Positions 17,892-63,334 of a stretch of 64,000 nt of DNA are shown in pieces. Each line of letters opens with the position of its first letter. The stretch's first letter is position 1. Source of the stretch: Eledone cirrhosa (Eukaryota); assembly GCA_964016885.1 (NCBI GenBank), contig OZ024742.1, positions 83,390,001-83,454,000 of the forward strand. Reading direction: 5' to 3'. The notes under the pieces were generated by a model. It saw only the letters and a program-made list of their open reading frames with translations. It was not told the DNA's origin and did not search any database. The translations under genes and the position numbers were made by a program.

Positions 17892-19604
17892 AGTTCTTTG
17901 AGTCTCAGTCATTGATGTTAGTTAACTGGAAAGTTAGTTGAAATGAATATCATGCCACTACCTGCAGCCGCAGATATTCAGGACGTATCGGAGGGTTCTT
18001 GTGTTCCCAGCAAGCATGCCTTTTGAAGTGTTCCAAAAAGCGGGGCGGGGCCAATTTTCTTTAACCATCCCTGGAAACTTTTTGAGATAGTCCCTAGTGC
18101 GCCTATGACAATCGGGATAACTTTGACTTAATGGCAGTTCCAAATCGTTTTTACCTCCCACTTTAAGTCCTGGTATCGGTTAATTTTCTCCCTCTCCTTC
18201 TCTTGCACTCTCGTGTCGAATGGGCAGTCCACATCCACAATCAGGCACGATCTTTTTTCCTCGTCCAAAACCACCAGGTCAGGTCTATTGTGTTCCAGTT
18301 TCTTGTCCGTCTGTATCCTAAAATCCCATAGCACCTTCACCTGATCGTTTTCTATCAGCGACTCTGGATTGTGCTGATACCACTTCTCAGAATGTGCTAA
18401 ATTGTTTACTTTGTTCCATGTCTGTGGATCTCTGAATTCCGTTTTCTCAAAGAAGGTACTATGAAGGGATTGTTCATGAAGGCTGCTCTATCCCCTCGTT
18501 GTTATTTCATCCTTGGACATCCCTGGTCTATTGTCCTCTCCTTCAGTACAATTCTGAGCATTGGCTCCTTACTATCAGTCACGTATTTGTGTAGGTTGTT
18601 TTTCTCCATCTGAACACAGTCCTCTATGCTGATAAGACCTCTTCCACCTTCAGATCTCCTTAAGTAGAGTCTATCGACATTACTCCTCTTGTGGAACATG
18701 TTGTAGATAGTCAATAGCTTCCTAGTCTTCCTATCCATTTATTTTTGTTCAGCAACATTCCATCTCAGAATTCCCACATTGTACCTAATAATAGACACAG
18801 CTCGGGAATTTACTGCACTTATGGCATTCATACTGTTCAGATGTGACTTTAATATGCTCTTTACTCTCCGAATGTATTCAGATCTTATCAACTCCTTCAT
18901 TTTTTGTTCTTGATGTCATCAGCCTCCAGAATATCCAAATAGTTGTATCCTTCTACAGTGTCAATTTCCTTTATCATCTCACCTGTTGGTACCTGGATTC
19001 CGTTGCTTCTGCTCAATTTGCCCCTCTTCATCACAAGGACTCCACACTTACTAATACCAAATTGCATACACATATCATTGCTGAAAATACGGACAGTGTC
19101 AACAAGCACATCCAACTCCTTCTCACTTTTCCCGAAGAGCTTAAGATCGTCCATGAAGAGGAGGTGATTGATGGTAAGCTCTCCCTTTCCCAACTTGTAT
19201 CCTGCTCTCACTTTTCGCAGTATAATGCTCACTGGCATCAGAGCAAGGACAAACGACAGAGGGGACAGACTATCTCCCTGGAAGATACCTCTCTTCATCT
19301 TCACGCCTCCCAAGGATTCTCCAGCTGATGTTAACTCTGTTTTCCAGGACTTCATACTCTTGCTCAACAACTGCCTGATGTTATCTGCCACCTTGAAGAT
19401 CACTAGGCTTTTGGTGATCCAAGAATGAGGCACCATGTCAAATGCCTTTTTGTAGTCTATCCATCCCATGGCAAGACCAGTGTGTCTCCTCTTGCAATTC
19501 CTCACTACCATCTTATCAATAGGTAACTGGTCCTTTGTACCACGGGACTTCTCTCGGCATCCTTTCTGTTCGTCCGGTAACAAGTTGTTTGTGTGGAGGT
19601 GATG
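17891..19604 (-). mobile_element. 5'-truncated, decayed copy of the adjacent R4/Dong-type LINE
   Basis: Highly similar to 19636-21595; frameshifts; zinc-knuckle region deleted; (TAA)n on both sides. Confidence 0.9.
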
Positions 19605-19635
19605 TATTATTATTATTATTATTGTTATTGTTATT

Positions 19636-22600
19636 CCTTGAATCTCAGTCATTGATGTTGGTTAACTGCAAAGTCCGTTGGATTGAATATCAATCCACTA
19701 CCTGCAGCCTCAGATATTCAGGACGTATCGGAGGGTTCTTGCTGTTCCAAGCAAGCATGCCTTTTGAAGCGTTCCAAAAAGCGTGAAGGGGCCGATTTTC
19801 TTTAACCATCCCTGGAAACCTTTGGAGATAGTCCCCAGTGCGCCTATGACAATCGGGATCACTTTGACTTCATGGCAGTTCCAGATCCTTTTCACCTGCC
19901 ACTTTAGATCCTGGTATCGGTTAATTTTCTCCCTCTCCTTCTCTTGCACTCTCGTGTCGAACGGGCAGGCCACATCCACAATCAGGCACGATCTTTTTTC
20001 TTTGTCCACAACCACCAGGTCAGGTCTATTGTGTTCCAGTTTTTTGTCCGTCTGTATCCTAAAATCCCACAGCACCTTCACCTGACTGTTCTCCATCACC
20101 GCCTCTGGCCTATGCTCATACCATTTCTCAGAATGTGGTAGATTGTTTACTTTGCACAGGTGCCAGTGGATCACCCTGCCCATCACATCGTGTCTCCAGC
20201 CCTTATAGTGGGTCTGGGCTAGGTGTTTACACTCGGACACAATGTGAGCCACAGTCTCCTCTCTCTCTCCACAGATCCTGCACAGTGGGCTAGCCTCCTC
20301 CTTGTAGATATGGTGCTTCAACCACTTCCTTTTGAGGGCCTGCTCCTGCGCAGCCATTAGCATTCCTTCTGTAGCCTTTTTGAGGTCTCCTCTTCTCAAC
20401 CAGTTCCATGTCTGTGGATCTCTAAATTCAGTTTTCTCAAAGAAGGTACTATGAAGGGATTTTCCCTTAAGGCTGCTCTTCCTCCTTGATGTTATTTCCT
20501 CCTTGGACATCCCCTGGCCTACTGTCCCCTCCTTCAGTACAGTTCTGAGCATTGGCTCCTTACTATAGGTCACGTATTTGTATAGGTTGTTTTTCTCCAT
20601 CTGAACACAGTCCTCTATGCTGATAAGACCTCTTCCACCCTCAGATCTCCTTAGGTAGAGTCTATCGACATCACTCCTCTTGTGGAACATGTTGTAGATA
20701 GTCAATAGCTTCCTAGTCTTCCTATCCATTTCTTTTTGTTCAGCAACATTCCATCTCAGAATTCCCGCACTGTACCTAATAATAGACACAGCTCGGGAAT
20801 TTACTGCGCTTATGGCATTTCTGCTGTTCAGATGTGACTTCAATACGCTCCTTACTCTTCGAATGTATTCAGTTCTTAACAATTCCTTCATTTTTTTGTT
20901 CTTTATGCCATCAGCCTCCAGAACGCCCAAATACTTGTATCCTTCCTCAGAGTCAATTTCCTTTATCATCTCACCTGTTGGTATCTGGATCCCGTTACTT
21001 CTGCTCAACCTACCCCTCTTCATCACAATGACTCCACATTTACCAATACCAAACTGCATACATATATCACTGCTGAAAATACGGACAGTGTCAACAAGCA
21101 CATCCAACTCCTCACTTTTCCCGAAGAGCTTAAGATCGTCCATGAAGAGGAGGTGATTGATGGTAAGCTCTCCCCTTCCCAACTTGTATCCTGCTCTCAC
21201 TTTTCGCAGCATAATGGTCAAGGGCATCAGGGCAAGGACAAACAACAGAGGGGACAGGCTATCTCCCTGGAAGATACCTCTCTTGATCTTCACGCTTCCC
21301 AAGGATACTCCAGTTGATGTCAACTCTGTCTCCCAGGACCCCATACTCCTGCCCAGCAACTGTCTGATGTTATCTGCCACCCTGAAGACCTCCAGGCGTT
21401 TGGTGATCCAGGAATGAGGCACCATGTCAAATGCCTTTCTGTAGTCTATCCATCCCATGGCAAGATCAGTGTGTCTCCTCCTGCAATTCCCCATTACCAT
21501 CTTATCAATAAGCAACTGGTCCTTTGTACCACGTGACTTCTTTCGGCATCCTTTCTGTTCGTCCGGCAACAAGTTGTTTGTGTGGAGGTGATGGTAGATT
21601 TCCTCAGACACAATGCTCGTCAACAGTTTCCACATTACGGGCAGACATGTGATAGGTCTATAGTTGGTAACATCATTACCCTTGATTCGGTCTTTCATTA
21701 TCAGAACTGTGGTACCTTTTGTCAACCACTCTGGCACCTCACCCGACACCAAGCAGTCATTGAACATGGCCGTCAGCTTCGGGTGGAGGGATGTTAAATG
21801 TTTAATCCAATACCCCTGCACATCTGGGCCTGGTGATTTCCAGTTGGTTAGTTTTTTGGCTTGCCCCTTAAGAGTTTCAACTGTGATACTCAAATCAGTC
21901 TGTTGTTGTGCCTTCTCACCGATCTCCCTCTGTACTGTCTCAATCCACCCTGCCTGGGCATTGTGTCTAACATCCTGCTCCCATATTCCTCTCCAGAATG
22001 TTTTAGCTTGTTCCGCCCCAGGGATCAAGTCGTTGCCTCTTTCTTTCCCCTCAAGCTGTCCAAACAGCATCTTCTGGTTGTTGTCGAACATGCGGTTCTG
22101 TTTATACTGACTGACTCTGTTCTCGTATCGCCTGATTTTGGCACTCTTTGCTACAATGCGTTGCTTCAATTCCTCTATGATAATATTTAGCTTTTTACTC
22201 CTAGTTTTGTATTTTATTTCCAGTCTATTTTTAGTGCCTATGTTTTTTAGTGTCCCATTCAGTAGTGACTCAAGCTTTCCTATGTCATTTCTCATTTCCC
22301 CGATTTGCCCACTCAGTCGCTTCTTCCACCACGGCTCTGCTCTTTCTTGTCTGTTGTTTCCTCTCGCTTTTATACCAAGTAGTTTCCTCACCGTATTTGC
22401 TGTTGCTTTGAGGATATTGTTGCACTGGTGGAGACTCCTCGCCTCAAGGTATGGGATGACTTTGTTTACCTTAGCTGTTGTTTCTTTTAACTTTTTCCTG
22501 TCTACAAATCTTAGGTTCATAGGTCTCCCACTATCATTGTTCAATTCATCTACCACTAGATTTAGGATGTCAACCGAATCTTGTCCTAGCCCGTCAGCAT

Positions 22601-23230
22601 TCATCTCCTCAGTGGCCGTATCTCTGTTCCAGGTATTATTTATCTCAGTATTCAGATCATTGTCTGTTTCGGGTGGTTCCTCCGTTCTCAGGACCTCCTC
22701 ACCTTCATTTCCCACCGGCTCGCCTGTCTGGCATACTACACCCGCCATCTCCAAGCCATTCTCTCTGCTCAGTTCCTCCAGTTCCAGCTCGCTTATCCAC
22801 CCATTAGTTCTTATTACCCGAGCCTGCCCGGCCAATTTTTGTTCATCTAATTTAAATAAACCAATCTCGTTCCAGATGTTATGCATCCGTCTCCTGTAGC
22901 CCCTCTCCTTGGGTTTACTTTTCAGGTAGCATTGCATAACAGTTCTATTCAATTCTTTCGTCCAGTTGGTTCTGGCCCCTTTCCTTCTTCTTCTTCCTCC
23001 AACATCAGCAGTATTTGGTTGACAGTCAGGTTCCTGCTGCTGAGCCAGGGGGCACCTGTTGGGTGAGAGTCTGTCACATGACGTTCTAGTCTCCATTTCA
23101 CCGTTATTCGAACTGTTTATGTTCGATATTTAAACACTCTTATCGAGGATTGGCGAATGTATGTTTACATAGCCATCTGTGGATCCGCCATCCCACTTGG
23201 CCCTTGTGTGGCATTATCACCACGCTGTAT
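19636..23230 (-). mobile_element. Near full-length R4/Dong-type RLE non-LTR retrotransposon
   Basis: Single long ORF, short 3' UTR running into (AAT)n. Confidence 0.9.
19710..23096 (-). CDS. RT - CCHC knuckle - restriction-like endonuclease polyprotein (1128 aa)
   Basis: NYRPITCL, DYRKAFD, GIFQGDSLSP, LFMDD, CRICGEREETVAHIVSEC, RHD, RPDLVVVD...IVDVACP...EK. Confidence 0.93.
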   Translation of the reverse strand: METRTSCDRLSPNRCPLAQQQEPDCQPNTADVGGRRRRKGARTNWTKELNRTVMQCYLKSKPKERGYRRRMHNIWNEIGLFKLDEQKLAGQARVIRTNGWISELELEELSRENGLEMAGVVCQTGEPVGNEGEEVLRTEEPPETDNDLNTEINNTWNRDTATEEMNADGLGQDSVDILNLVVDELNNDSGRPMNLRFVDRKKLKETTAKVNKVIPYLEARSLHQCNNILKATANTVRKLLGIKARGNNRQERAEPWWKKRLSGQIGEMRNDIGKLESLLNGTLKNIGTKNRLEIKYKTRSKKLNIIIEELKQRIVAKSAKIRRYENRVSQYKQNRMFDNNQKMLFGQLEGKERGNDLIPGAEQAKTFWRGIWEQDVRHNAQAGWIETVQREIGEKAQQQTDLSITVETLKGQAKKLTNWKSPGPDVQGYWIKHLTSLHPKLTAMFNDCLVSGEVPEWLTKGTTVLIMKDRIKGNDVTNYRPITCLPVMWKLLTSIVSEEIYHHLHTNNLLPDEQKGCRKKSRGTKDQLLIDKMVMGNCRRRHTDLAMGWIDYRKAFDMVPHSWITKRLEVFRVADNIRQLLGRSMGSWETELTSTGVSLGSVKIKRGIFQGDSLSPLLFVLALMPLTIMLRKVRAGYKLGRGELTINHLLFMDDLKLFGKSEELDVLVDTVRIFSSDICMQFGIGKCGVIVMKRGRLSRSNGIQIPTGEMIKEIDSEEGYKYLGVLEADGIKNKKMKELLRTEYIRRVRSVLKSHLNSRNAISAVNSRAVSIIRYSAGILRWNVAEQKEMDRKTRKLLTIYNMFHKRSDVDRLYLRRSEGGRGLISIEDCVQMEKNNLYKYVTYSKEPMLRTVLKEGTVGQGMSKEEITSRRKSSLKGKSLHSTFFEKTEFRDPQTWNWLRRGDLKKATEGMLMAAQEQALKRKWLKHHIYKEEASPLCRICGEREETVAHIVSECKHLAQTHYKGWRHDVMGRVIHWHLCKVNNLPHSEKWYEHRPEAVMENSQVKVLWDFRIQTDKKLEHNRPDLVVVDKEKRSCLIVDVACPFDTRVQEKEREKINRYQDLKWQVKRIWNCHEVKVIPIVIGALGTISKGFQGWLKKIGPFTLFGTLQKACLLGTARTLRYVLNI

Positions 23231-27589: not shown

Positions 27590-28630
27590 TTAATGTCTAC
27601 GCTTTGGCAGACCTAGAGCTTTAAGTGAAGAAGAATATGTTACTTCCTTGAGAATTTTCAATGATTCTTCAATATTTTCTAAAATTTCAACTCGTTCAAC
27701 CCGCATGTCGAGCCGTTGAAAGAACCTAAGTTTACTTTCAGTATCAAGTGAGCGAACATTTATTCGTTTCATAAATATTACATTATGCCCTCTATGCTTT
27801 GCCTGAACGTAAAATGTTCCTTTACAAAATGAGTGATCGGATAATCAACATGTATGGAAAGAGCGAGTATGACGAATGCCACGTTGATGATATTTTTTGT
27901 TAAAACAAAGGCCATCAAATGCCATTCTTTTGGACCATGGATGTATCCAAGTGGTTTGGAACATGTTTTGTTTTGATAAAAAGGCCAAGTTTATTACGAA
28001 AAGAGAAAAAGCGACGCACATTGCTATCCATGCTATTCTTGTTACTAGTGCCACGAGAACCAAGAACATTTAGTCAGGACTCATAATCTGACAAAACTCT
28101 GCATAGCAACTGATTACGGTTAGGGTAGTAGTATCAGCAAGTTTGAGTTTCAATACTATCAACCGATCACTCACCTCCTGTGTTAAAGAAATCAATATAT
28201 TTGCTATGTTAGTTCTAATAGCAAATCCAACAAAACAAAGAGCCTGTTGCATCTTCTTTTTACTATGACAGAATTAGTGTGCAGCCCTCCCCTTACTCCC
28301 CAAGCTGTCCATAATCTGTTTTCTTTCCTAATAAGTCTGCGCTATTCTGAAGGGTTCGAATTTTCCAAGAACCAAAGTTATTAGGATTTTTTTATGTCTT
28401 TATCTGTGTCAGTGTTTCGCCTACATAGTGAACCACAGTAAAATGACAAGTCTTTAGAGGCATGCAATTTTTATGGCTTTTTCTCTAAGCAAACCTGCTT
28501 TGTTACCCAGCATAGGGTACGAGCAGCACAATTGTCCAAAGGATTTGTGCTGAACGGTTATCTCTACAGAGTACCAATGAAGCACTATCAGTGGTATCCG
28601 TTACCTGTCCCGGTTGCTTGGACAATGACG
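27590..28630 (-). pseudogene. RTE-like LINE AP-endonuclease region, decayed
   Basis: VGFAI...VSDRLIVLKL...TVISCYA; TTWIHPWSK. Confidence 0.7.
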
Positions 28631-28796
28631 TCTACCAATCCTCAAAATCCCCACCTTCCCCAACTACCAGAAACCACAAGTACCACCGTATTACTATGAT
28701 AGTTGGCTTTCCTGGTACTAATGTATTGAGTACATTACTTACTGTGGCTACCCCCGATTGAACCCAGAACTCACACACACACACACACACACACAC

Positions 28797-28892
<96 letters not shown>

Positions 28893-28949
28893 GACGTAAA
28901 ATAAGAACATTTTAAAAATTTAAAATTAACTTACTTACTAAAATTTTCG

Positions 28950-29029
28950 CTCCAACTAATTAGTTTCTGTAAGGGAGTAAATATAGTTACGTAACGCAAC
29001 TATAGAGAAGTCCTTACGTCATCAGGGAG
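28950..29029 (-). ncRNA. Hammerhead ribozyme, intact core, extended stem II
   Basis: Reverse complement of 30035-30114. Confidence 0.82.
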
Positions 29030-30034
29030 TCTATTCTCAGCTAAGTTCCCAGGCAATGCGCAGACACTAGGAACCCATATGAAAATAATAATTCAGTGGA
29101 TGGAATAAAGCTAGCGGGGACTAAATTCCAGGGCACTGAAAAATTCACTGCCTACTTGGTCAGTGGCAAATTCTAAAGAATCTATCACGTCACACTGAGG
29201 TTAATCAGTGAGGAGTGTGGGGGTATTATGACAAGAGCCTAACTACTACCATGAACCATAGCAGTAAATTTTGGCAAGTTTTGCTCAACAAATAATTTGG
29301 AGATAAATATAGAGAATTAGTATATCTACCAACATATGTATACAGATGTATACCCATGCTAACAAATATATATGTTATGTCTTAGTACCTTTGTGGTTCT
29401 ATGCAGGGGGATGCAGAACAAATATATGAAAGACGTAAAATAAGAAAATTTTAAAAATTAAAAATTAACTTACTTACTAAAATTTTCACTCCAACTAATT
29501 AGTTTCTGTAAGGGAGTAAATATAGTTGCGTTACGTAACTATATTTACTCCCTTACAGAAACTAATTAGTTGGAGTGAAAATTTTAGTAAGTAAGTTAAT
29601 TTTAAAATTTTAAAATTTTCTTATTTTACGTCTTTCATATAATTCTTCTTCATCCCCCTGCATAGAACCACAAAGGTACTAAGACATAACATATATATTT
29701 GCTAGCATGGGTATACATCTGTATACATATGTTGGTAGATATACTAATTCTCTATATTTATCTCCAAATTATTTGTTGAGCAAAACTTGCCAAAATTTAC
29801 TGCTATGGTTCATGATAGTAGTTAGGCTCTTGTCATAATACCCCCACACTCCTCACTGATTAACCTCAGTGTGACGTGATAGATTCTTTAGAATTTGCCA
29901 CTGACCAAGTAGGCAGTGAATTTTTCAGTGCCCTGGAATTTAGTCCCCGCTAGCTTTATTCCATCCACTGAATTATTATTTTCATATGGGTTCCTAGTGT
30001 CTGCGCATTGCCTGGGAACTTAGCTGAGAATAGA

Positions 30035-30114
30035 CTCCCTGATGACGTAAGGACTTCTCTATAGTTGCGTTACGTAACTATATTTACTCCCTTACAGAAA
30101 CTAATTAGTTGGAG
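30035..30114 (+). ncRNA. Hammerhead ribozyme, intact core, extended stem II
   Basis: ctcc CTGATGA c-gtaagg...tatagttgcg-tta-cgtaactata...ccttac-a GAAA ctaattag TT ggag. Confidence 0.82.
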
Positions 30115-30287
30115 CGAAAATTTTAGTAAGTAAGTTAATTTTTAATTTTTAAAATTTTCTTATTTTACGCCTTTCATATAATTGTTCTGCATCCCCCTGC
30201 ATAGAACCACAAAGGTACTAAGACATAACATATATATTTGCTAGCATGGGTATACATCTGTATACATATGTTGGTAGATATACTAAT

Positions 30288-30343
<56 letters not shown>

Positions 30344-31366
30344 GGGGGGGTGCATGTGACAGAAAATTCATTGACACGTACTATAGCAATATATGTGTTG
30401 AATAACTATTAAATTTAAAGCAAGAATGTGTATATAGTTATGATGATGCCCAGAGGCGGAACAATTGTTACTGAGCTAGAAGTAAATGAATTACCAATTA
30501 AAGAACTTAATTCCTCTTTTTTATGTATAATTAATAGGTATAGAAAAGCTGGTGAAAATGGATACTGATAGTTTTAGGTGACGTACGTCAGTTGAGATGT
30601 TGGGACTGTATTCCACTTGTATAGAATCATGCAGAGAGACGATAAAAAAATCGAAATAAATAAATTATTACACAATATTAAAAATAAAACAATGAAAGCT
30701 TTTATATATTTCTGTGGGTCATTGTATACGTCATGTATAAAACAAAGCCTGATTAACAAAGACCCACTTCCTTTTTTTCTCTACAGTTGCTGCTGAAATA
30801 TTATTTGCTCCTTTGAAATATGGTGTTATCTATATTGCGTTTTACACCTAAGACTCCGCACTAATAACGTTTCAAAGCTTTCTATACCAAACGACATCAT
30901 CCTGTAACTTTCTTCCGTGTTATTAACAGGAGTCAACATATAAACGTTCAAGATGAAAATGAAGCGATCTATCCAATCACAATGAACATGTGAATAGCCC
31001 AAATCCCTTCCTTTAATTAAGTAAAAAAGAGATTAATGTATCATTCCTGCCAAGATCAAATTTTACAGGGTTGATAAATAAAGCACCAATAATGCAGTGG
31101 GGTCGATTTAATCAACGTAACCCTCACTCCAACATTGTTGGCCTTGTGCCTAAATGAGAGAGTATTATGTTGCTAGTTTCAGTGATTAGATCACGGGCGT
31201 GCTGGAGCAGCGCCCTATTTTAGTAGATTATATTACACTAAACATATATGCACAAATCTATTACTTATTTTATCGATCTCATTTTTGTCGAACCGACAAG
31301 TTACAAGAGTGTAACAGTGGTGAAGACACAAACATAATCAAAGATGCGGTCAGACGGGAGGACACT

Positions 31367-33159: not shown

Positions 33160-33585
33160 ATAAACAGGGAGACACAAAGCAGGCTTTGTTTACAAACGGC
33201 TAGAGAATTTGAAAATTAGATAATAACATGTGCTTACGCTGTATTTGACTACATAGAATTAGTTTGTTATTCTGCTTTGTGTTTCCTTATTTATATACAT
33301 ATATATATACCTGCTATGGTTACATAGCTTCTGGTTGAATGGAAGGAGACATGGGCGGCCTGTTGGTGTAATGTTAGCACATTGGTGCGGCAAACCAGTC
33401 ATATGGGTTTGTGTCCCATTTACGTCAATAGTCATCCTTTTTTTCGATTCAGAGTGTTTTTAAAATCCCAACTAACAGACTAATTCTATGTAGTCAAATA
33501 CGGTGTGAGCACATGTTACTACCTAATTTTCAAATTCGCTAGCAGTTTGTAAACAAAGTCTGTTTTGTGTCTCCTTATTTATATA
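33160..33585 (+). mobile_element. Family B tRNA-head SINE-like element preceded by an inverted copy of its 3' end
   Basis: A-box-like tggtgtaatgttagc and B-box-like gggtttgtgtccc (gggttcgtgtccc in the 26408 copy); inverted repeat 33160-33270/33470-33582. Confidence 0.65.
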
Positions 33586-37610: not shown

Positions 37611-38107
37611 AAACAACCCCTCCCCAAAACATGACACTGACACCAACACAAAAGAGCTCACAACAACAGCAAATAAAAAACACCACACAAAAATAAAAAC
37701 ATGCATACACATACATAAACACAAGAAACAAAAACTGTTAAACATTGTGTACAACAACAATCTAATAAAAACACAAGGGCCTAACTTCACCCAGGCAGGG
37801 GATTTCCCCCACCTCAAAATGATTAAGGCCCCACAGGACACCTATAAAACTTTAATAAACAATTTTAAAGAGGACGTGGATCCCCCCTGCGTCGGGCCCA
37901 TTAACCCCGTCCTCCTAAAAAAACTACCCCACCCCCTCCACAAACACCCACACAACTACAAGCTCCCCAACCACACAACACACTGATGCCCCTACACTTC
38001 CACAAACAACCACCCCAGCCAACAACCCATCCCCCACCCTAATGGAAATTGTGCAGCCCGATACCCGGGACGCAGAGAGGTAAGTGCCTTTTCTCTTCAC
38101 CACCAAC

Positions 38108-41100
38108 ATGGCTATGCTAAGAGTAGGCTGTTTAAATGCGCGTGGCCTGGGCTCAACTTGGAAGCAAGCAATGCTTCTAAATGACCTCAGGTCACAACGT
38201 ATAGATGTGATGGTTATTTGCGAGGCCCGGATCAGAAACGTGCGACAGCTGGCCCCCACCTTTGATGACTTTGAGATGCACGCATCTCTCTGTCAGCCCG
38301 GAGGTGGGGGTGGAGGAGTTGTCGTTCTGCTGCAAAAACATCTGGGTCTCGCAACACAGATGGTACATTTGGACCCAGAGGGTCGACTAGTGGTTCTGAA
38401 CCTTGGCAGTGGTAAAGGCGGAGCGTTTAGGTTGGTAGCCGCCTACGGCCCTTTCGGGTCAATGCGGCCGGACTTCTTCCATCGTCTGGAGACTTTTCTA
38501 GGGACGTCCCGCTCCTTGCTATTAGTGGGGGACTGGAATGGGATCCTAGATGCACGCTGGGACTACGTAGGGGCCTGCCCCGATAGAGAGGGGTGTAATA
38601 GCCTCAAAGGGTTAATCGGTCGATTTGACCTGGCCGATAGATATCGACTAGATTTTCCGACTGCGCCAACCTGGACTTGGGCAAATCGTAGCGGATCATC
38701 TAGGTCGTACCTAGATAGGTTCTTAGTTAGAATTAAGGATAAGGACTTTTTAAGTTGTCCAAAAATGCGCATGGTTGGCTATTCAGACCACAAATTAGTG
38801 ACCTGCATGGTCAACCTTGACAGAACTCATAGACAGGGACCCGGTTACTGGAAGCTCAACTTGTCCTTACCGGCAAGTAAGGCTTACAGGAACCGGATTA
38901 GCACTTTAGTTAAGGAGCGGTTGACGGGCGCCATCGTCAACAGCAGGTGGTGGGGATCTCTCAAAAGAGAGATTAGAGTAGTCTCTATAGAATTTAGTAA
39001 GGAGTTAGCCTCAAATAGAAATAGGAAGGAAAGGGAGTTGGTAGATAGTGTAGAAGAGGCAATTAGAAGCGGCGACGTGGCCAGAGTGCTAGAGTCGAGA
39101 ACGGCCCTGGGCCAGTTCTTCGACGCGAAACACGAAGGCTGCATCGTCCGAAGCAAAATACGTGCTCTGGGAAACGAGGGGACCAAAGCTGTTAGCTGGG
39201 CCCGCGTGACAAGCCAAAAGAGGGAGCAGAACCACTATCCGGTCTTTGCGAGACCAGGATGGACGGGTGATCCTTGAACCTAAGCAGATGTGGGAGGCTT
39301 TTCAAAAGCACTTTGCCGGATTGTTCGGAAGGGGCGGGGGGCCGGTTGGGGACGTGGACTTCGGTCCATACCTCGACGGCCTGCCGCGTCTCTCGGACAG
39401 GGAGGCGAAGTCCTGCGAGGAGCCGATTTCAGCCGCTGAGATAGAGGACGTGCTGAGCCAATGCGGCAAACGCAAATCCCCGATTCTCGATGGTCTTCCA
39501 TACGAACTATATCTAGCTATGCCGGACTTGTTCCCCGAACTCCTCGAGGCGGTCTACTGCAACTGGCAACAGAACGGGAGAATTCCCTGTGCTGTGACCA
39601 AGGGCGTAGTCACGCTAGTGAGGAAGGACGAGAACAAGGGGGACGATATAAATAATTTCAGGCCCATAACTCTGCTAAATACAGAGTTACAGATTTTGGC
39701 CAAGGTGCTAGCAAAGAGGTTGGCGCTTGTCGTGGGCAACCTGGTGGGAGATGCGCAGACATGTGCTATCCCGTCCAGGTCCATCCACGATAACCTCCAC
39801 CTCATGCGATACATCATAGAGAGGGTTGGGAACGAACCCGGCTTTGGTGGGGCCCTGATCAACTTGGATCAATCTAAGGCATTCGATAGGGTCGACCATG
39901 GTTACCTGGATGCGGTGCTAGCGGCGGCAGGCTTCGGACCCGTTTTCAGGGGCTGGATCAATGCCATGCACAGCAGCCGCATCTGCTCTAGGGTCAAGGT
40001 GAACGGCTACCTCTCGGAGCCGTTCGAAATCGCGCGGTCCATCCGACAGGGGTGCCCTCTCTCCTCCCTTCTGTATGTAATGACTCTAGAGCCACTGATG
40101 CGGAAGTTGGAGTTGTTGCAGGGCATCCCGTTGGAACCGGGATTGCGGAAAGCGGTGTCAGCCTACGCCGATGACGCAACAGTAATGGTGTCGACGGCCT
40201 CGGAAATCAGGGCGATCGGCACCTTACTGGAGGAGTACGAAAGGTTTACAGGGGCTAAGCTGAACAGGGGCTAAGTCGATCGGTCTGCAACTCGGCACGT
40301 GGAGGGGCAGATCGATGCCCTCCGACGGCGTCGTCGGGCGCTGGACGGAGGGCCCGGTGAAGTTGCTCGGGGTCTGGTTCGGACCAGACCTCCAGGTGGA
40401 GAAGAACTGGGGTGAGGTGACGAACAGGGTGTTTGCACTGACCCAGAAGTGGGCCGAGTGCAAACTGTCCCTGAAAGGACGGGCGGAGGTGGCGAACACT
40501 TATATAGCGTCCGTCATCTACTACCGCCTGACCGTTGTGCCTTGCCCAAGGGAAACGCTCGCCAAAATGGAGCGCGCACTCTTCCAATTCCTTTGGAAGA
40601 AGCGGGCTCCTATGGTGAGGAGATCCATCTGCTGTCAACACCCTTCTAAAGGAGGGCTGGGGATGCCGTGGCTAATGATACGTAAACACGCATTAAGGCT
40701 ACGGCACCTTCAGGTATTCCTCTCCGGTCAACCGGTGTGGGCCCCGTTTGTGAGGCGAGCCTTTCCCAGACTCGTCTCACTCACCGAGCTGCAATCCTGG
40801 GTCAAGCAAAGACCGAGAAAACTGGGCGCCTGGCACACCGAGTGTGCCCAGGCACTCACGGCTCTCTGGCAGGCGGACCCGGCTGTCAGTGGAGAATCCA
40901 CCTCGTCATTCTATAGAGGGCTGGTGGTTAGCAGGTGCGACGACGCCCTCGGAGAAGCCCTAGGCATGGAGGAAGACGAACTGGCCAACCTATTCGGTAG
41001 GACATTCAGCCCGGGACCCATGGATAACTTCCAGAGGTCCCTGGCCTGGCAATGCTACAGAAGGGCTCTGCCCGTTCTAGAAAGGCTCTACAGACACGGG

Positions 41101-41546
41101 CGCCCGGGTAGGGACCCATCGAAAAAGATCTGTCCCAGATGCGTGTGCGACGAGGAAACCGTTGCACACGCATTGGTACACTGCTCGGGCATTGCCGATC
41201 TGTGGGGTTATGTCGAACAACTGCTGTCAAGGGTGGGACCATCCGGTTGACCACCGAGTCTATTGTAACGATCAAGCCGCCTCCCCTCTTCAAAAACGAA
41301 GGAGAGGCGGTGTTTCTGTGCGTAATAGCCATGGCGAAAGAGGTTGTATGGTGGACGCGTCTGAAAGGACTGAGGTCAGACACCTTTCTCTCTGGCCAAC
41401 AACTGGTCCGTTTCTTCCGATATCATTTCGGAAGAAGGATCAGGATGGAGAGTGAGGTGCTGCACCCCAGCCGTTTCTATGAAAGATGGGTGAAAGTGGC
41501 GAGTATGGCCCGTGTGAATGGGCCTTCACTCTACATCAGACTATAG
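38108..41546 (+). pseudogene. Tx1 ORF2 (APE endonuclease + RT + C-terminal Cys motif), disrupted
   Basis: LNARG, GDWN, SYLDR, YSDH, DQSKAFD, IRQGCPLS, YADD, CPRC...HALVHC over four ORF pieces. Confidence 0.92.
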
Positions 41547-43036: not shown

Positions 43037-46000
43037 GGTCTGTTCGGACGTCTTTTTGGCACGCTCCCAGTAAGTCGCTTTATTTGCCTGTTAAAATTAT
43101 TTGTTGTTAAATATTTCTTGTTGTGTAAGGGATATAAACCCTTATACTTTGCCCTGTGAAGGGGAAAGTATAATATTTGGGCCGTTTTGCCCAAATATTT
43201 GAACTTTTTTTACATGTTAAAAAATTTACGGAGAAAAAAAAACATGGCTGATACCAATGATCGTCGAGGGCAGAAGGCCTAGGTGTGTCGTTTGTGGTGA
43301 AGTAACCCACCTAAGGGCTTTCTGCCCTCAGGCTAAAAGGTTGAAGCCACCTCTCTTACCCACCCCAGTGACTCAACCATCAACACCACCACCAGCAGAA
43401 ATAGCAGCAACAACTGTAGCAGCAACAACAGAAGTAACTTAAACAGCAACAACCCCAGCAACAGTAGCAAAACCAAAACCACCACCACCCAACGCGCCAG
43501 AACTAGCACCAGCGCCTACACCATCCACCACGCCACAACCAAAACCAACGCCTGTGGAGGATTTTCCACTCCCCGACCTATCGCCACTGGAGACAGATTG
43601 TGACGAAGAGGAGTGGGAAACGGTATCAAGAAAAAAGAAAGAAAGAAAAAGAAACCAAAAAACAAAAAATCCTCTTCCTTCCCCCTCCAAAAACAAAATA
43701 CAGAGGGAAACAAATAAACTCTCAAACAAAAATGTTAGGACAGCTATGCCACCATCCACACCAGCATCACCAACCCCATCACCACATACACCAACACCAT
43801 CACCATCATTAACCTCAACACCACCATCACCAACACCACAAAAGTCACCAAAAAGCGAAACAGAAACAAACCCACAACAAACGCAAACAAAACAAAACAA
43901 CCATAACGATACACACTACACAGCATTAAATTTGAACAACAACCAATTATTACACTACATCCAACACAACACCAGCATCACAGAAAAAGACTACACAACA
44001 AACCAAAAGTTCACACCACCTCCACACATACAAATCACTCGCATCACACAGAAAACGTACACGACACTAAAACAAAAATTCCCCAAAGACATCGGAGACT
44101 TCCGACAAACACTCTCCAGGAGGATTTATAAGGACATCCTTCCGGAGGAGGCCAGAAGCAGTGAAAAGGATGGAGAAACCATCCTTCCTGTATGAGAAGT
44201 AAGGTAAGTGGTGTTTTCCCATCTTTTCCACTCCATTTCAACATGACCTCACTCAGAATAGGCAGCATAAATGCGCGTGGCTTTGGGTCGTCATGGAATC
44301 AGGGTCACCTGCTCAACGACCTCAGCTCACTAAACATAGATGTAGTGGCAATCAGCGAGACCAGAATCTCCGAAGCACGGGCCTTCGCACCCATTTTCGG
44401 CGGCTACGATGTGTACGCATCTCCCAGCCGTCCAGGATCGGGGGGAGGAGTTGCTGTGCTTTTTCGGAGAGGTTTGGATCTCACCATACGGGCCATCTTC
44501 CTGTACCCAGAAGGTAAGTTGGTAGTGCTGGACGTGACAAGCGGAGAGGGGCAAGCTTTTAGGCTAGTGGCCCTCTATGCCCCGACAGGAGCAGGGCGGC
44601 CTGATTTCTTCCGGCGTCTGGAGACCTTTCTTAGAACGTCCCGCTCTTTAGTGTTAGTGGGCGAATGGAACGGGATCTTAGATGCACGCTGGGACTGTGT
44701 GTGATTAGCGGATAGGGGAGGAGGGTGCTTGAGCCTCACCAACCTGCACAGGCGTTTTGAACTCTCTGACAGGTACCGATTGGATTTCCCGAATGTGCCA
44801 ATGTGGACTTGGACAAACCGCATTGGGTCATCCAGATCATATCTAGATAGAGTATTTTGTAGGGAAATAGATAGGTCTAGAATAGGCTGTCCATAATTCA
44901 AGATAGTCAGCTACACGGACCACGAATTCGTGATTTGTGTGCTTGACTTAGATAGGCTTCATAGACTAGGACCCAGCTACTGGAAGCTAAATGCGTCCTT
45001 ACCAGCGCGCAAGGCCTACAGAGATCGAATTAGCGAACTAGTTAAGCGGGCGTTGACGGGGGCCATCGTGAACAACAAGTGGTGGTTTGCTCTGAAAAGA
45101 GCGATTAGAATAGAGTCCATTAGGATTAGTAAGGCTTTAGCAATAGAGAAAAATAGAGCAGAGAGAGAACTAGTTAGAAAATTAGACGAGGCGTTTAGCA
45201 AAGGCATCGCGACCGACGTACTAGCGGCGAAATTGGCCCTTGACCAATTCTTCAATGCAAAGCATGAAGGCTGCGTTATCAGAGCTAGGGTGGTGCGTGC
45301 TCTCAGACACGAGGGGACAAAAGCCGTTCAATGGACCTGAGTGGCGGAGGCGCGTCGTAGCAACAAAGCTACGATCCGGTCTTTGGTGGACCACGACGGG
45401 CGCATGCTACTCGATCCCAGGCTAATGTGTGAAGCTTTTCAGCGACACTTCGCTCAGATGTTCGGGGGAAGCGGCGGGCCGGGTCGAGCGATGGACTTTA
45501 GTGTCTACCTCGACGGATACCGCGGCTCTCGGCCACTAAGGCGCGTAGTGTTGCGAAAAGCCGATAACAGCCGCTGAAGTACGGGAGACAATGACTGGCT
45601 GACAAGGGGTAAATCGCCTGGTTTGGATGGTCTGCCCTATGAACTTTACGTACAGATGCGAGACTTGTTCGAAGGCCTCTTGGCGTACGTTTACTGCAAA
45701 TGACAACCGAACAGGAGAATTCCCAGCTCTGTGAGCCGAGGAGCGGTGGCGATGCTGAGAAAGGATCCGAACAAGGGGGATAACATAGATAATTTCAGGC
45801 CCATAACTCTGCTAAACAGAGTTCAAGATTTTGGCCGAGGTGCTAGCAAAGAGGTTGGCGCTTATCGTTGGTGGTCTGGTGGGAGAGGCGCAGACATGCG
45901 CCATTCCCGACAGATCCATCCACGACAACCTCCACCTCATGCGATACATCGTAGAGAGGGTAGCTAGGGAACCTGGCACGGGTGGGTCCTTCATCAATTT

Positions 46001-47587
46001 AGATCAGTCGAAAGCTTTCGATAGGGTCGACCATCGTTACCTAGCGACAGTCCTGAGGGCGGCTGGCTTTGGGCCCGTCTTCAGTGGCTGGATCGCTGCC
46101 ATGCACAGCGACATCTGCTCTGTGGTGAGAGTGAACGGTCACCTTTCGGAACCGTTCAACATCATGCGCTCGGTCCGCCAAGGATGTCCCCTCTTGTCCC
46201 TCTTGTACGTATTGACTCTCGAGCCATTACTGCACAAACTGGAGACGTTGAGGGGCGTCCGCGCGAACTGATGATGTCACCGTAGTGGTGTCGAACGCTA
46301 AACACATCGAGGCGATCGGCACTACACTAAGAGAATACGAAGCGGTGACAGGAGCAATGATCAACCAGGAAAAGTCAGTGGGCCTGCAGCTCGGCACCTG
46401 GAGAGGAAGGTCCTTGCCGTCCAACAGCGTCGTCGGACGCTGGACGGACGGACTGGTTAAATTGCTAGGGGTCTGGTTCGGTCCGGACCTCCAGACGGAC
46501 AAAATCTGGGACGAGATGACGAGTAGGGTGGCTTCTCTCACCCAGAAATGGGCGGAGAGGAAGCTATCACTGAAAGGTCGAGCGGAGGTGGCTAACGCGT
46601 ACATCGAGTCCGTCATCTACTACCGCCTGACCGTCGTACCTTGTCCTAAACACCGCCTGACTGCGCTGGAGCGTTTGCTCTTTCGCCTTTGGTGGAAACT
46701 CAACCTTGGCGTTCTATAGAGGATTAGTGGAGGGGAAGAGCGACGACGTACTTGGGGAAACTCTAGGCGTCGACGAAAATCAACTAGCCAATCTCTTAGG
46801 AAGAACTTTCGGGCCGGGGACTATGGACAACTTCCAGAAAGCCCTGGCCTGGCAGTGCTACCGAGGAGCTTTGCCAGTTCCGGATAAACTCTACAGGCAT
46901 GGAGGTGCCGTCAGTCGGGCATGTCCGAGATGCGCGCAGGGCGACGAAACCGTTCTGCACGCACTCGTCCAGTGTCCGAGCATTGCTGACTTGTGGGTTT
47001 ATGTCGAACACCTGCTATCGCGTGTAGGACGGATCCATATATCAGCTGAGTCCATCGTGAGGATTGCCCCGCCCTCTTCCTTTAGCCAGGAAGGGCAGGC
47101 AGTTTTCTATCTGTCTGGTGGCCATGGCGAAAGAGATAGTATGGTGGACACGTTTGAAAGGGCTGAAGACGAGCACTTACCTCTTCGGTGATGCCCTGAT
47201 TAACTTTTTCAAATTTCAATTGAAAAGGAAAATCAGGATAGAGAGGGAAGTGCTCTCTTTCCAGCATTTTGTTGAAAGATGGGTGAGAGAAGCAAGAATG
47301 GCCTGAGTGAATGAGCAAACTCTGAGTATGTGTCTGTAAATTAAAGGTGGAAAACTGGGAGAGGGCACTTGCCCTGGCGGTCAGGTTCACTGTGGTTTTT
47401 TAATGGGCTTTCTCCACGAATATCCCTCGGAAGTCTCCCTCGTATTGGGAAATTTTCATTGTTATTTTTTGTTACATCCTCTGTTTTTGTTTTTACACGC
47501 AGAAATGCCCATTTTGTACCGTCCTGTATTGTCCTGTACTGTCCTTAATGTCTACTTTATGAAAACCCTTGTGGTTAATAAAGAAAG
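43037..47587 (+). mobile_element. Second Tx1-type LINE family, decayed with internal deletions, inserted in (TAT)n
   Basis: ORF1 knuckle CVVCGEVTHLRAFCP; ORF2 pieces ~44243-47338 homologous to 38108-41546; (TAT)n at both junctions. Confidence 0.9.
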
Positions 47588-48149: not shown

Positions 48150-49430
48150 ATGCAGCAGCACATGTGCTGATAGCCAGTATCTTATTCCTACCACTTAAAT
48201 TCGCCTTTAACACCAATTTCAGTCTCCGTTTTTATTTCTTTGATAATAGTTCTTTTATTACCTTCTCTTTCATTTGGTTTGTTTCCTGGATGCCTAAGTT
48301 CTTATGCCTGTTGTCGTCAATTTCCTTCATAATTTGTCCTTCTGGTAATACAATTCCTTCCGCCTTATCAATTCTACCTCGCTTCAGTGGGAGCACCGCA
48401 CACTGTTTTATGCCAAATTTCATTCCTGTGTCTGTAGTGTATGTATGAACTGCCTGTACAAGTGAATCAAGATGTTCATAGGGTTTCCCATAAATTTTAG
48501 GTCATCCATGAACAGCAGGTGATTTACCTTAAAGTCACGTAACCAGACTGTGATCTTCTCAATACCAAGGAAAGTGTAACCATGCACAATACAGAGAGCA
48601 AAGAGTAATGACTATCTCCTTAAAATATCTCTCTCTTGATTTTCACAACTCCCAAAGTCTGTTTACATGATGTTAAATCAGCTATCCAACCATCCATATG
48701 TTCCCCAAAAACTGTCTAACGTTAGCTACAATACCAAATATTTCCAAACATTCTACTATCCAGCTATTTCGCACCATCTCATAAGCCTTTCGGTAAAATA
48801 TCCAGCCATGGCAACGTTTGTGTGTCCCCTGTTACTATATTTAAGGATCGCATTATCAATCAACAATTCATACTTAGTTCGCCTGCTTCTTCTCCTACAT
48901 CCCTTCTGCTCTGCAAGTAGTGTCTCCTCCAGGTATTCATACATTGCTCAGCAATGACACCTGTCATACGTTTCCACATAAGAGGGAGGTAAGAGATAGT
49001 TCTAAAGTTGTCAAATGCATTTCCATTGCTGAGGTCCTTCAAACACAAGATCATTCTCCCAAAGGTAAGCCTTTCCGGTAACCTCTCTTCTCCATTCAAG
49101 AACTTATTCAATTGCTCAGCAATTATCCCATGAAGGCTCCTCAGCTTTTTCAACCAGAACAATTGAACAACGTCTCTGCCGGGAGCTTTCCAATTCGGTA
49201 TATTTCTACACTGGATAGTTACCATATCGTTATCTCCAATTCTCCCTGTTGGTTATCCTCAATGTCATTTTTCATGTTAATCAGCCACTCGAAACTTCTA
49301 TTGTGCTCGTTTCTTACATTCCAGATATCACACAAAACTTGTTACATTCAACCGCATCGAGAATGACGTCTTCCTAATCTTTCCATTTATTCTCCTGATT
49401 TTGTACTTCCCTGTTTTGTTTCCCCTTTCC
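48150..49430 (-). pseudogene. Decayed R4-type RT fragment
   Basis: PNWKAPGRD...[30 protein letters not shown]. Confidence 0.8.
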
Positions 49431-49437
49431 CCTTTTA

Positions 49438-50730
49438 ATGAAATTAAATGACACCTTGCCAGGACACGTAAACAGCTCTGAGGAGGTGATGGAGCGCCTG
49501 TATCAAATGGATCCCGACACCAGAAAGGCTAACAGATGTGCCTTCAGCCTTGATGTAGTCGCTCTTTATACCTCGGTCCCGGCACTCCCGGCCGTTGATA
49601 TACTGATGGAACGCGTCCAATCTGCCGACCTACACTGCTTCGGGCTCACCACCACTGACATCACATACTTCGGATTTCTCGGCCAAACATACCAGCAAAC
49701 CTCGGGACTGCCCATGGGCTCAAGCCTGTCGGGTGTGCGAGCGATCTCATACATGGACAGCCTCGAGCGCCTGGAACTTAACACCTGCCACCCCAACGCC
49801 GTCGCCCTTTTCTCAAGGTACGTGGACGATATCCTCATCCTCACATCTTCCCAGGAGATGGCGAACATAATCTATGAGACGTTCAACAACACGGACGAAA
49901 ACATTGGTTTCAGTGTTGAACACCCCATCGACGACGGGTCACTTGCTCTCCTCGACTTCCGAATGAACATCACGGAACAGGGAGGGGTCCACACAAACTT
50001 CTACCGCAAGGCAGCCTGCAGGGACATGTTCGTCCACTACAAGTCCGCCCTCTCTAACAATGCTAAAAGAGGGTACGTCACGAACAAGATCACGCGAATT
50101 AAAAACAGATGCAGCGATCCCGCGAGTGGTGTCACCAATACCAAGAGATTCCTCAAAGTGCTGGAGACGAACGGGTATCCTGCCTCACTCACAAACAGAA
50201 TAAGAGACACCAGACGCAAGAGGCAGAGAAACACCCAAGGCAAGTGTTTCCTTAAAATACCACACCTGGGCGAGAATTCCACCAACGCTATCCGCAGGGC
50301 TATACGGAGGGAGGGCCTCGACATCCACCTGGCCCACTCGGACCCCTCCCTGTAAAGATGCCTCTCCAGGAAACCCGGGAAATCGACTGACGCGTGCTCC
50401 CTCAGAAACTGCCAGATGCGCCATACGAACTGTTGCCTATGCACATACGTCGTGTAGAAGATAGAATGTGATAAGTGCAACCACTACTATATAGGTAGCA
50501 CAATCCGGCCGCTACACATCAGGATCAAGGAGCACATCAACACCAGGGCCTCGTCTTTCCGGAAACACATAACCAAATGCGGAAACAAAGACGGAAGGCC
50601 CATTGTCACAGTGCTAGCGACAGAACATAACGTCGGCACGTTACGAATCAAGGAAGCACTTTGGATCAAACGCCTAGGGCGACAAATAAATAACCGATCC
50701 GAGAGAAGCGAAATGAGGTGGTTGGTTTAA
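49438..50730 (+). pseudogene. PLE RT + GIY-YIG with stops
   Basis: ORF 49438-50355 and its in-frame continuation past stop codons. Confidence 0.85.
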
Positions 50731-58238: not shown

Positions 58239-59102
58239 TGAGTTGGGATGGAGGGTCTGTGGTTTTTCTCACATCTGGTTGGTCTCTGAATGTTACTTGT
58301 TTTATATGGAAAAAGTGGCTCGAAATGCCAGGTTTTTCGAGAAGTAGTTTGATTGGTTTGTCAATAATTATAATAAATTTCGCGCCAGTTCGCGTTACAA
58401 TAGTTCTTCAAATAAGAGGAGGGGTTGTCACAGGTTGTTTTTCCATATATGAGTGTTTGAATTTCTTTTTACTTGAAAAAAGGGGCTCACGAAGGCTTTT
58501 TTTTTGGTTGGTTATAAATGAAATTATTGCTGTCACGTGAACAAGTTTTCATTAAATTTTCGTGCCCTTATTTGGAAATCCATTCTGTAGCCTTTTTAGA
58601 GAATTTTATAAGTGAAAGATAATGGTCAAGAGAAATGGATGGGATAATTGTTCTGGTTCAGTGAATATGGTTAGTTCGCTGGGGTGTCAGAATTCAGATT
58701 TTCTATTGAATAAAGACAGTAAAGATATGTATGTTTATTTGTGTGCTTGTGTGTATGTGCGTGTGTGCGTTGTTTGTGTGTGTGTTTGAATTTCTTTACT
58801 TTAAAAAAAGGTGGCTCACGAAGGCTTTTTTTTAATAAACGTGATTTGATTGGTTATAAATGAAATTTGGCTGTCACGTGAACAAGTTTTCATTACATTT
58901 TTGCGCCCTTATTTGGAAATCTATTCTGTAGCCTTTATAGAGAATGTTATGACAAGGAATCTCCTAAAAAATAGTGGAAAGATAGTGGTCAAGAGAAATA
59001 GGATTGGGAAAATTGTTCTGGTTCGGTGAATATGGTTAGTTCGCTGGGGTGTCAGAGTTCAGATTTTCTATTGAAGTAAAGATATGTATGTTTATATTGT
59101 GC

Positions 59103-59191
<89 letters not shown>

Positions 59192-59469
59192 CGCGTGTGT
59201 GTGTGTATTGGAAGATGATTCTATTAGTAGAAATGGGGGAGGGAGTTGTGTGTGTGTGTATGTATGGGTGTTATGTGTGTGTGTAGGAAAATGATTCCTT
59301 TAGTAGGAATAATTTTGAATGAACATATTTTCCTTACTTATTCGTATTTGTTCTGTTGTATTGTCAGTGCAAACGTATGTTAAGGTTTATTTAGTTCGGG
59401 TTTTTATTTTCTAAAGTAGGTGTTATGTGTGTGTGTGTATGTCATATTATGGTGTTGACATAATGTATA

Positions 59470-62400: not shown

Positions 62401-62510
62401 AGTCTTTGTTGGTTTTCTGGTTCATTCGGGATGGGTTTTATTTGGAGTTTTTGGGGGAGGATGATTGGGGTAGAGTTTAGCCACTTTTCATATATGTCTG
62501 CCTTGCAATT
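59470..62510 (-). pseudogene. Neptune-like PLE polyprotein, frameshifted
   Basis: LRPIV, SFDVVNLYT, TAMGTKAAP, RYLDD, LPFLD, SNHP, GIY-YIG in ORFs 60000-61031 and 59470-59985; N-terminal pieces up to ~62510. Confidence 0.92.
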
Positions 62511-62717
62511 ATTTTTTAGGAGATTCCTTGTCATAACATTCTCTATAAAGGCTACAGAATAGATTTCCAAATAAGGGCGCAAAAATGTAATGAAAACTTG
62601 TTCACGTGACAGCCAAATTTCATTCATAACCAATCAAATCACGTTTATTAAAAAAAAGCCTTCGTGAGCCACCTTTTTTTAAGTAAAGAACTTCAAATAC
62701 ACACACACACAACACAC

Positions 62718-62801
<84 letters not shown>

Positions 62802-63334
62802 GCACACACAAGCACACAAATAAACATACATATCTTTACTGTCTTTATTCAGTAGAAAATCTGAATTCTGACACCCCAGCGAACTAACCATATTCACTGA
62901 ACCAGAACAATTCTCCCATCCATTTCTCTTGACCATTATATTTCACTTATCATAAAATTCTCTAAAAAGGCTACAGAATGGATTTCCAAATAAGGGCACG
63001 AAAATTTAATGAAAACTTGTTCACGTGACAGCAATAATTTCATTTATAACCAACCAGAAAAAAAGCCATCGTGAGCCCCTTTTTTCAAGTAAAAAAGAAA
63101 TTCAAACACTCATATGGAAAAATAACCTGTGACAACCCCTCCCCCCCCCACCCCTCTTATTTGAAGAACTATTGTAACGCGAACTGGCCCGAAATTTATT
63201 ATAATTATTGACAAACCAATCAAAATTACTACTCGAAAAACCTGGCATTTCGAGCCACTTTTTCCATATAAAACAAGTAACATTCAGAGACCAACCAGAT
63301 GTGAGAAAAACCACAGACCCTCCATCTCAACTCA

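Follow-up and report, generated by a model that had tools for sequence, protein, structure and literature searches.

A two-armed palindromic insertion in Eledone cirrhosa and the retrozyme-like family to which it belongs

A palindrome in the genome of Eledone cirrhosa, built of inverted copies of a 539-nt unit with a predicted hammerhead, has its axis on a hairpin of the ribozyme itself. Does ribozyme structure set the geometry of such insertions, as an earlier note on this DNA had claimed, or is that geometry set elsewhere? We compared the locus, which lies in a stretch of 64,000 nt (the window, by which we mean the whole stretch analysed), with other copies of the unit in the genome. The single locus is ordinary within its family: the main geometry, overlooked in the earlier note, is a pair of fixed outer ends, one per arm, and this is the inverted-copy-plus-tail footprint of Penelope-like elements (PLEs).

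Architecture of the palindrome and its predicted ribozyme

The palindrome is real and far beyond chance (Table 1). Its inverted-repeat arms (28884-29531 and 29533-30180) are 648 nt each and 98% complementary, with 11 differences when compared in register. The earlier reading of about 1.2 monomers on the minus strand joined to about 1.4 on the plus strand, with a period of 539, was accurate: the minus arm measures 660 nt (1.2 units), the plus arm, which ends at 30292, measures about 772 nt (1.4 units), and the period is present in both. The inversion centre likewise lies where it had been placed, on the apical hairpin of stem II. Base 29532 falls inside the loop of an axis segment that is identical in sequence to the hairpin at 30060-30082, and the arms overlap by this 23-nt element. 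Unit numbering starts here at the base after GUU, with position 1 at 29572. From unit position 489, the minus arm passes through one full unit to position 70 and enters (TA)45, and the plus arm passes through one unit to position 182 and enters (CT)9(TA)n. The flanks to the left and right of the insertion are unrelated and have no mirror symmetry.

A fold-back during library preparation or assembly could produce a structure of this kind. When a 117-nt axis stretch was compared with contigs of two sequence sets (X1 and X3) and raw reads of another sample (X21), all of which contain the 539-nt family, none of the pieces listed crossed the axis, and a weakly matching RNA run (X17) contributed no piece; short-word assemblies of a repeated palindrome would not yield an axis-crossing piece anyway. 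Against an artefact stand the 11 arm differences, the different unique flanks, the position of the ends on fixed sites and the recurrence of the layout genome-wide. An artefact is therefore unlikely to account for the window palindrome, and we give it almost no weight. The arms differ by 1.7% compared to 3.2% in 24 other pairs, which makes the earlier description of the insertion as young a fair one, yet conversion inside the palindrome could also reduce arm divergence.

Table 1. Features of the palindromic insertion, in window coordinates; unit positions count from the predicted cut site
Feature	Positions	Strand	Remarks
(TA)n target, left side	28799..28888		Joins minus arm via CATATA at unit position 70
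Short-ended arm, unit 489 through full 539-nt unit to 70	28884..29543	-	
Complete predicted type I hammerhead, minus arm	28938..29041	-	CUGAUGA core starts 29025; predicted cut 28954/28953; mirrors plus-arm copy
Axis, 23-nt stem II apical hairpin common to both arms (unit 489-511)	29521..29543		Centre 29532
Long-ended (tailed) arm, unit 489 through full unit to 182	29521..30292	+	
One full 539-nt unit, cut site to cut site	29572..30110	+	
Unit 5-20, inner-arm-end hotspot of 539-nt family	29576..29591	+	AAAATTTT palindrome at unit 7-14; overlies 3' strand of predicted distal stem I
Complete predicted type I hammerhead	30023..30126	+	Distal stem I; stem I ACUCC/GGAGU; CUGAUGA 30039-30045; GAAA 30097-30100; GUU 30108-30110
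Stem II with nested hairpin 30060-30082; palindromic stem III ACUAAUUAGU	inside 30023..30126	+	
112-nt tail, unit 71-182, outer end of one arm only	30181..30292	+	
(CT)9 run at the 182 end, expanded from CTCT of the unit	30289..30306	+	
(TA)n target, right side	30306..30334		

The predicted hammerhead has CUGAUGA at unit 468-474, GAAA at 526-529 and GUU at 537-539, in type I order; stem I pairs 463-467 with 1-5, and stem III is short and palindromic. The type I core, stem I and stem III are kept in three subfamilies (approximately 94, 85 and 83% identical to the window copy), with GUU as the cut triplet and GUA in a minority. Two pairs of stem II show compensatory changes (477-523: TA 172, AT 45, CG 5; 480-520: GC 170, TA 45), and this covariation amounts to a few subfamily-level events. 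A fold constrained to the hammerhead has an energy of -25.2 kcal/mol compared to -27.7 for the best fold, a cost of 2.5 kcal/mol, and adds a distal stem I extending to unit position 16. Beside the core, C475-A525 (10.1-11.1) is a non-canonical combination in 220 passes, with a G-C pair one step outward, and this conserved mismatch could impair cleavage. No Rfam hammerhead model matched the window element at the gathering score or at E values up to 10; the Rfam E-value matches in the window are hairpin models attracted by the palindrome and not hammerheads. Identification as a type I hammerhead thus rests on motif, fold and covariation, and activity is predicted only. Among Xenopus retrozymes, eight of nine failed to cleave in vitro (bioRxiv 10.64898/2026.07.22.740005).

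Each arm of the window copy carries one complete hammerhead and a second that is halved by the axis. With one complete ribozyme per arm, this copy would not release unit-length RNA itself. Two consecutive complete hammerheads, by which Li 2026 recognizes an "active" copy, are absent here and occur as tandem full units at other loci. Natural variants exist in 29 copies (L223-L251) in which stem II is shortened and the core intact; as leads to an autonomous partner they were set aside, since they resemble deletions within the 539-nt family. Just 3' of the ribozyme, the segment 29587-29663 (unit 16-92) contains repeated GTAAGT, a pyrimidine tract and TAG, and by eye resembles an intron.

Fixed outer ends across the family

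The 3.0-Gb genome contains 3,020 candidate places of the 539-nt unit, including arrays of more than six units. By exact-pattern count, 1,741 ends at position 70 run into (TA)n and 249 ends at position 182 run into (CT)n. The 539-nt element contains no open reading frame (ORF) of at least 150 amino acids. These counts support the view that the window element belongs to a non-coding, retrozyme-like family of more than 1,700 insertions with a predicted hammerhead, and bear out the earlier identification of a retrozyme-like element: the tandem units are non-coding, have one hammerhead each and are present in many copies.

We analysed 192 loci, comprising the 30 best full-unit matches, 2 hairpin-join matches, 90 of the 1,741 position-70 ends and 70 of the 249 position-182 ends; the 90 and 70 end-selected loci were the first listed on two contigs, and some of the 192 are redundant. 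They contained 140 head-to-head pairs, counted by outer end. One end at 70 and the other at 168-196 was found in 111 pairs, compared to one 70/70 pair and two 182/182 pairs; another 22 had one other end, and four were cut by the locus edge. Thus 111 of 114 clean pairs carry one end at 70 and one at approximately 182, although most loci had been picked by one of these ends. In the set picked by neither end (L003-L030), all 13 pairs were 70/182. The 112-nt tail is present on only one end in 111 of the 114 clean pairs. CT runs of at least four units were found at terminal 182-ends, in 6 of 42 where the locus had been selected through its position-70 end and in 14 of 21 in the full-unit set, compared to none of 64 internal passes, and this confinement to terminal ends suggests stuttering at initiation. 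Any target-site duplication would be hidden in (TA)n. Some insertions were duplicated locally after arrival, in direct or inverted orientation (L089/L090, L122/L123, L158, L172, L174).

The same layout recurs in a second retrozyme family (L270, L282-L401) with a 493-nt unit, a canonical GUC hammerhead and fixed ends at 189 and 274. Across 120 loci of this family, 58 of 60 clean pairs have one of each fixed end, with 18 other pairs set aside.

Retrozyme circles and their proposed mobilization by PLEs have been described (Cervera and de la Pena 2020, PMC7229834; Li, Clavereau and Pollet 2026, bioRxiv 10.64898/2026.07.22.740005). Like metazoan non-LTR retrozymes, the 539-nt family is built of AT-rich, non-coding tandem units, each with a single predicted type I hammerhead, at high copy number and with PLEs in the same genome. 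The unit falls inside the 51-972 bp range of Li 2026 (bioRxiv 10.64898/2026.07.22.740005) and is longer than the 170-400 nt retrozyme RNAs of PMC7229834. It differs from known retrozymes in its long predicted stem II with a nested hairpin and in the conserved C-A beside the core. The family also exists mostly as dispersed two-armed insertions with fixed ends, a layout that is not described in the portions of PMC7229834 and bioRxiv 10.64898/2026.07.22.740005 available to us; the word "inverted" is absent from PMC7229834. More broadly, a literature search, with most subscription journals outside its scope, found no two-armed retrozyme insertions, PLE twin priming or cephalopod retrozyme.

Insertions of EN+ PLEs have an inverted 5'-truncated copy, a one-sided tail and a (TA)n bias (Craig et al. 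2021, PMC8557442). The 539-nt family shares with them the inverted 5'-truncated head-to-head copy, the tail on one end and partial tandems, as well as microsatellite targets, palindromes at some inverted junctions and a hammerhead in the repeat (PMC8557442, PMC3846280). It differs from EN+ PLEs in lacking an ORF, in having a tail of 112 rather than 30-40 nt, and in showing no homology to the one PLE family tested. For the Poseidon PLE of the anole in vitro, two reverse transcriptase (RT) start sites bound the tail, and both target strands are cut and extended (Frangieh et al. 2024, PMC11167929). That element and the 539-nt family are alike in their two internal starts 3' of the hammerhead bounding the tail and in an AT-rich target, whereas the anole enzyme starts without target homology and uses the same starts on both strands, compared to TA homology at each end and different starts per arm here (PMC11167929). 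LINE-1 twin priming (Ostertag and Kazazian 2001, via PMC10760644) provides a further parallel, with two primings per target and cDNAs joined by microhomology, but L1 primes at its poly(A) tail and a variable internal site, whereas both sites are fixed in the 539-nt family and its arms exceed one unit (PMC10760644).

Inner joins, the hairpin and the cut site

The inner arm ends are spread across the whole 539-nt unit, and most inner joins have an overlap of 0-5 nt between the arms. The earlier note had proposed that a single cDNA snaps back on the ribozyme hairpin and copies itself, the hairpin thereby setting the palindrome. Because a copy made by fold-back has to fit within its template, the 35 of 107 pairs in which neither arm nests in the other speak against snap-back as the general mechanism; this set excludes the window copy, L032 and two duplicates. 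Under random pairing, 44 plus or minus 4 such pairs are expected, and the lengths of the two arms show no correlation. Both target ends were likely primed. Nested pairs (72 of 107, compared to approximately 63 by chance) are somewhat commoner than random, and this excess leaves room for fold-back in some copies.

The positions of the joins bear on the same proposal. Among 109 sampled 70/182 pairs, joins are symmetric within 3 nt in 10, two of which represent one duplicated locus, compared to 3.9 by shuffling; the other 99 are asymmetric. Six of the 10 symmetric joins sit on AAAATTTT at unit 7-14 and none on the stem II hairpin, and both inner ends lie near that hairpin in only one of the 109 pairs. 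Across the genome, 44 places carry a perfect 28-nt palindrome on AAAATTTT, a sequence that lies immediately 3' of the cut site. The exact pattern for a hairpin-centred join finds the window copy and one off-centre copy, and a degenerate pattern finds seven places: these two, L406, L402, L404, L405 and L407, the last of which is not a family member. L406 is symmetric in the hairpin tip, and L402, L404 and L405 have short fold-back tracts at the hairpin followed by another join. Two symmetric copies and three short tracts at the hairpin thus compare with 44 AAAATTTT palindromes, a ratio that is only indicative because the patterns were not equally stringent. At L004, L022, L029, L061, L099, L124, L402, L404 and L405, short inverted pieces (20-85 nt) lie between the arms or at an arm's inner end, and some of them look like a brief snap-back before the final join.

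Arm ends at 484-511, around the hairpin, number 24 of 268, a 1.7-fold enrichment per base at risk (p 0.013, uncorrected). The claim that the ribozyme hairpin sets insertion geometry is therefore unsupported as a rule: joins are scattered, none of the 109 is symmetric on the hairpin, and end enrichment there is slight at 1.7-fold. As a family rule the hairpin axis is rejected, and the hairpin-centred join is a rare outcome at a minor join site of the 539-nt family. What speaks for snap-back is the exact 23-nt coincidence and an in-register private variant in the window copy, the symmetry of L406 and the tracts in L402, L404 and L405, the excess of symmetric joins, and the self-priming proposed for PLE junction palindromes (PMC3846280). 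It leaves the fixed end at 70 unexplained, in addition to the non-nesting pairs and asymmetric joins. We consider it improbable overall; refuted as the family rule, it may still apply to the inner join of the window copy. The predominance of asymmetric joins also argues against self-priming as the general route that had been proposed for PLEs (Arkhipova et al. 2013, PMC3846280); the family weighs against it as the general source of PLE head-to-head repeats and shows its rare occurrence.

DNA hairpins are able to seed inverted duplications. An insertion with one arm could have been turned into the palindrome at the DNA level, through fold-back during replication or through repair at the hairpin, and short inverted pieces at some joins fit such an origin. 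The flanks, however, are unrelated and not mirrored, the duplicated arm would need to end on the second fixed site of the family, and the layout recurs at more than 100 loci, which together make this origin very improbable.

The strongest concentration of inner ends lies just 3' of GUU. Positions 5-20, an interval picked after the data were seen, contain 51 of 268 arm ends (4.6-fold; 3.7-fold without the 7/7 loci), in all three subfamilies, and there is no enrichment at 1-4 (3 of 268) or in the equally AT-rich 21-45. Pure run-off at a cleaved end does not explain this peak, as positions 1-4 hold only three of the 268 ends and trimming or a stall would be needed. Microhomology as sole cause is likewise unsupported: inverted 4-mers are as plentiful at positions 21-45, where there is no peak, and joins in the hotspot do not have longer overlaps (p 0.10). 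Nor is the peak a general hammerhead effect. In the 493-nt family, 7 of 195 ends lie at 1-20 (0.95-fold), and because this second family has no peak at the cut site, the peak is family-specific; candidate causes are trimming of a cleaved 5' end, stalling at stem I or some local cause.

Template, enzyme and proposed mechanism

Shared variants provide information on the template. Per site, they amount to 0.0156 between the arms of a pair, 0.0189 between tandem units of an arm and 0.0034 between insertions (61 pairs, 82 arms), and variant sharing is 4.7 times as frequent between the two arms of an insertion as between arms from different insertions. In the 24 of 90 pairs with enough sites, inter-arm divergence is 0.0323 for the same pass and 0.0319 for different passes. 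The GUU site is crossed by 193 of 272 arms, twice by 44, with no excess of indels at the crossing (15 of 1,844 columns, compared to 1.8% overall). These patterns are consistent with a homogeneous, repeatedly copied unit, which a circle would explain and which a transcript of a young tandem array would explain as well. The earlier suggestion of a circular or rolling template of approximately 539 nt is consistent with this genomic pattern.

In the window copy, the two arms depart from the subfamily majority at 10 shared sites. One of these, a private variant at position 5, is present in the outer unit of both arms and in neither inner unit; of 107 four-way sites, no other behaves this way. The pattern is not expected if the two cDNAs were made independently from one circle. 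Snap-back of the 182-primed cDNA, with its sense extension pairing with a short 70-primed cDNA, a linear template with two variants or conversion within the palindrome could each explain it, and one site cannot decide among them.

Our best explanation, which we regard as probably correct, is that an abundant non-coding hammerhead repeat is copied into (TA)n by a PLE enzyme priming on both ends of the break. Tandem loci would be transcribed, the predicted ribozyme would cut at GUU, and unit-length RNA would be closed into a 539-nt circle. A PLE RT-endonuclease would cut the (TA)n target; one DNA end would prime at position 70 and the other at approximately 182, each via a few bases of TA homology, with priming at the 182 end sometimes stuttering on CT. 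Each cDNA would extend around the unit over a variable distance before being joined head to head with the other through 0-5 nt of homology. In the window copy, the join would have been made at the 23-nt hairpin of stem II: the two cDNA ends would have annealed there, or the 182-primed cDNA would have snapped back and its sense extension paired with the 70-primed cDNA; we regard these two routes as about equally probable. Points against this explanation include the 112-nt tail compared to PLE tails of 30-40 nt, ends that match TA compared to none in the anole PLE, the conserved C475-A525 mismatch, the private variant of the window copy, and long arrays in which subsets of units have variants in common.

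A variant of two-ended PLE priming replaces the circle by a linear template: an RNA of several units, transcribed from a tandem locus and cleaved in part by the ribozyme. It would account for the in-register private variant in the window copy, and for the occurrence in long arrays of variants common to subsets of units. If some templates ended at the cut, arm ends would be expected to accumulate just 3' of GUU, as they do, and the anole PLE worked mainly on uncut RNA in vitro (PMC11167929). Against it, divergence does not differ between same-pass and different-pass comparisons, tandem units share variants as arms do, and circles have been demonstrated for coral, mussel and axolotl retrozymes (PMC7229834). 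We consider the linear template unlikely, though it keeps an appreciable share of the probability.

Returning to the circular template, we tentatively offer a fuller version, a possibility to which we assign well under an even chance. One PLE enzyme pair would use two fixed starts, one per strand, on a small circular RNA, and the ribozyme would shape the inner join in two ways: the cDNA would often end 3' of the cut, at a cleaved template or a stem I stall, and would rarely snap back on the stem II hairpin and then pair with the opposite cDNA. If true, this would be genomic evidence for a retrozyme hammerhead acting on the template during retrotransposition. The origin of PLE inverted ends and tails, circles as the template of reverse transcription, and the role of the hammerhead are stated as open in the parts of the literature we consulted. 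From the 539-nt family we would predict that synthesis starts at 70 on one strand and at 182 on the other, that the circle measures 539 nt and is closed at GUU, and that stops fall at 5-20.

We found no autonomous PLE with the terminal sequence of the 539-nt unit in the window PLE family, the 192 loci or the shortened ribozymes. The 539-nt element itself has no ORF with RT and GIY-YIG, and none of the arms at the 192 loci runs into a PLE ORF. The window does contain a broken PLE at 59473-61148 on the minus strand, in which RT is followed by a CX4CX2C linker and GIY-YIG, the layout of Neptune and Nematis (PMC8557442); the region of this element (58300-62900, minus) has tandem repeats at its ends. 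Its family has 23,339 candidates in the genome, many with open frames of 775 codons. In 30 copies of this family, the first 900 nt downstream of the ORF contain no hammerhead, and the 3' region has no real similarity to the 539-nt unit. Likewise, 30 canonical hammerhead loci had no match to two PLE proteins. A second RT frame in the window (49399-50355, plus) is 23% identical to the PLE RT (E 4e-11) and likely represents a distant PLE family.

The window around the palindrome is rich in microsatellites and retrotransposon relics. By eye, possible short exons flank the insertion at 28511-28718 and 30788-30852; a Pfam search of two possible exon frames to its left gave nothing above the cut-off. 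A weak tRNA match (32.5 bits) at 33357-33427 on the plus strand is possibly the head of a SINE, and LINE-type relics with RT, AP endonuclease or zf-RVT domains are present at 18897-23129 (minus), 38084-41250 (plus) and 44165-47191 (plus).
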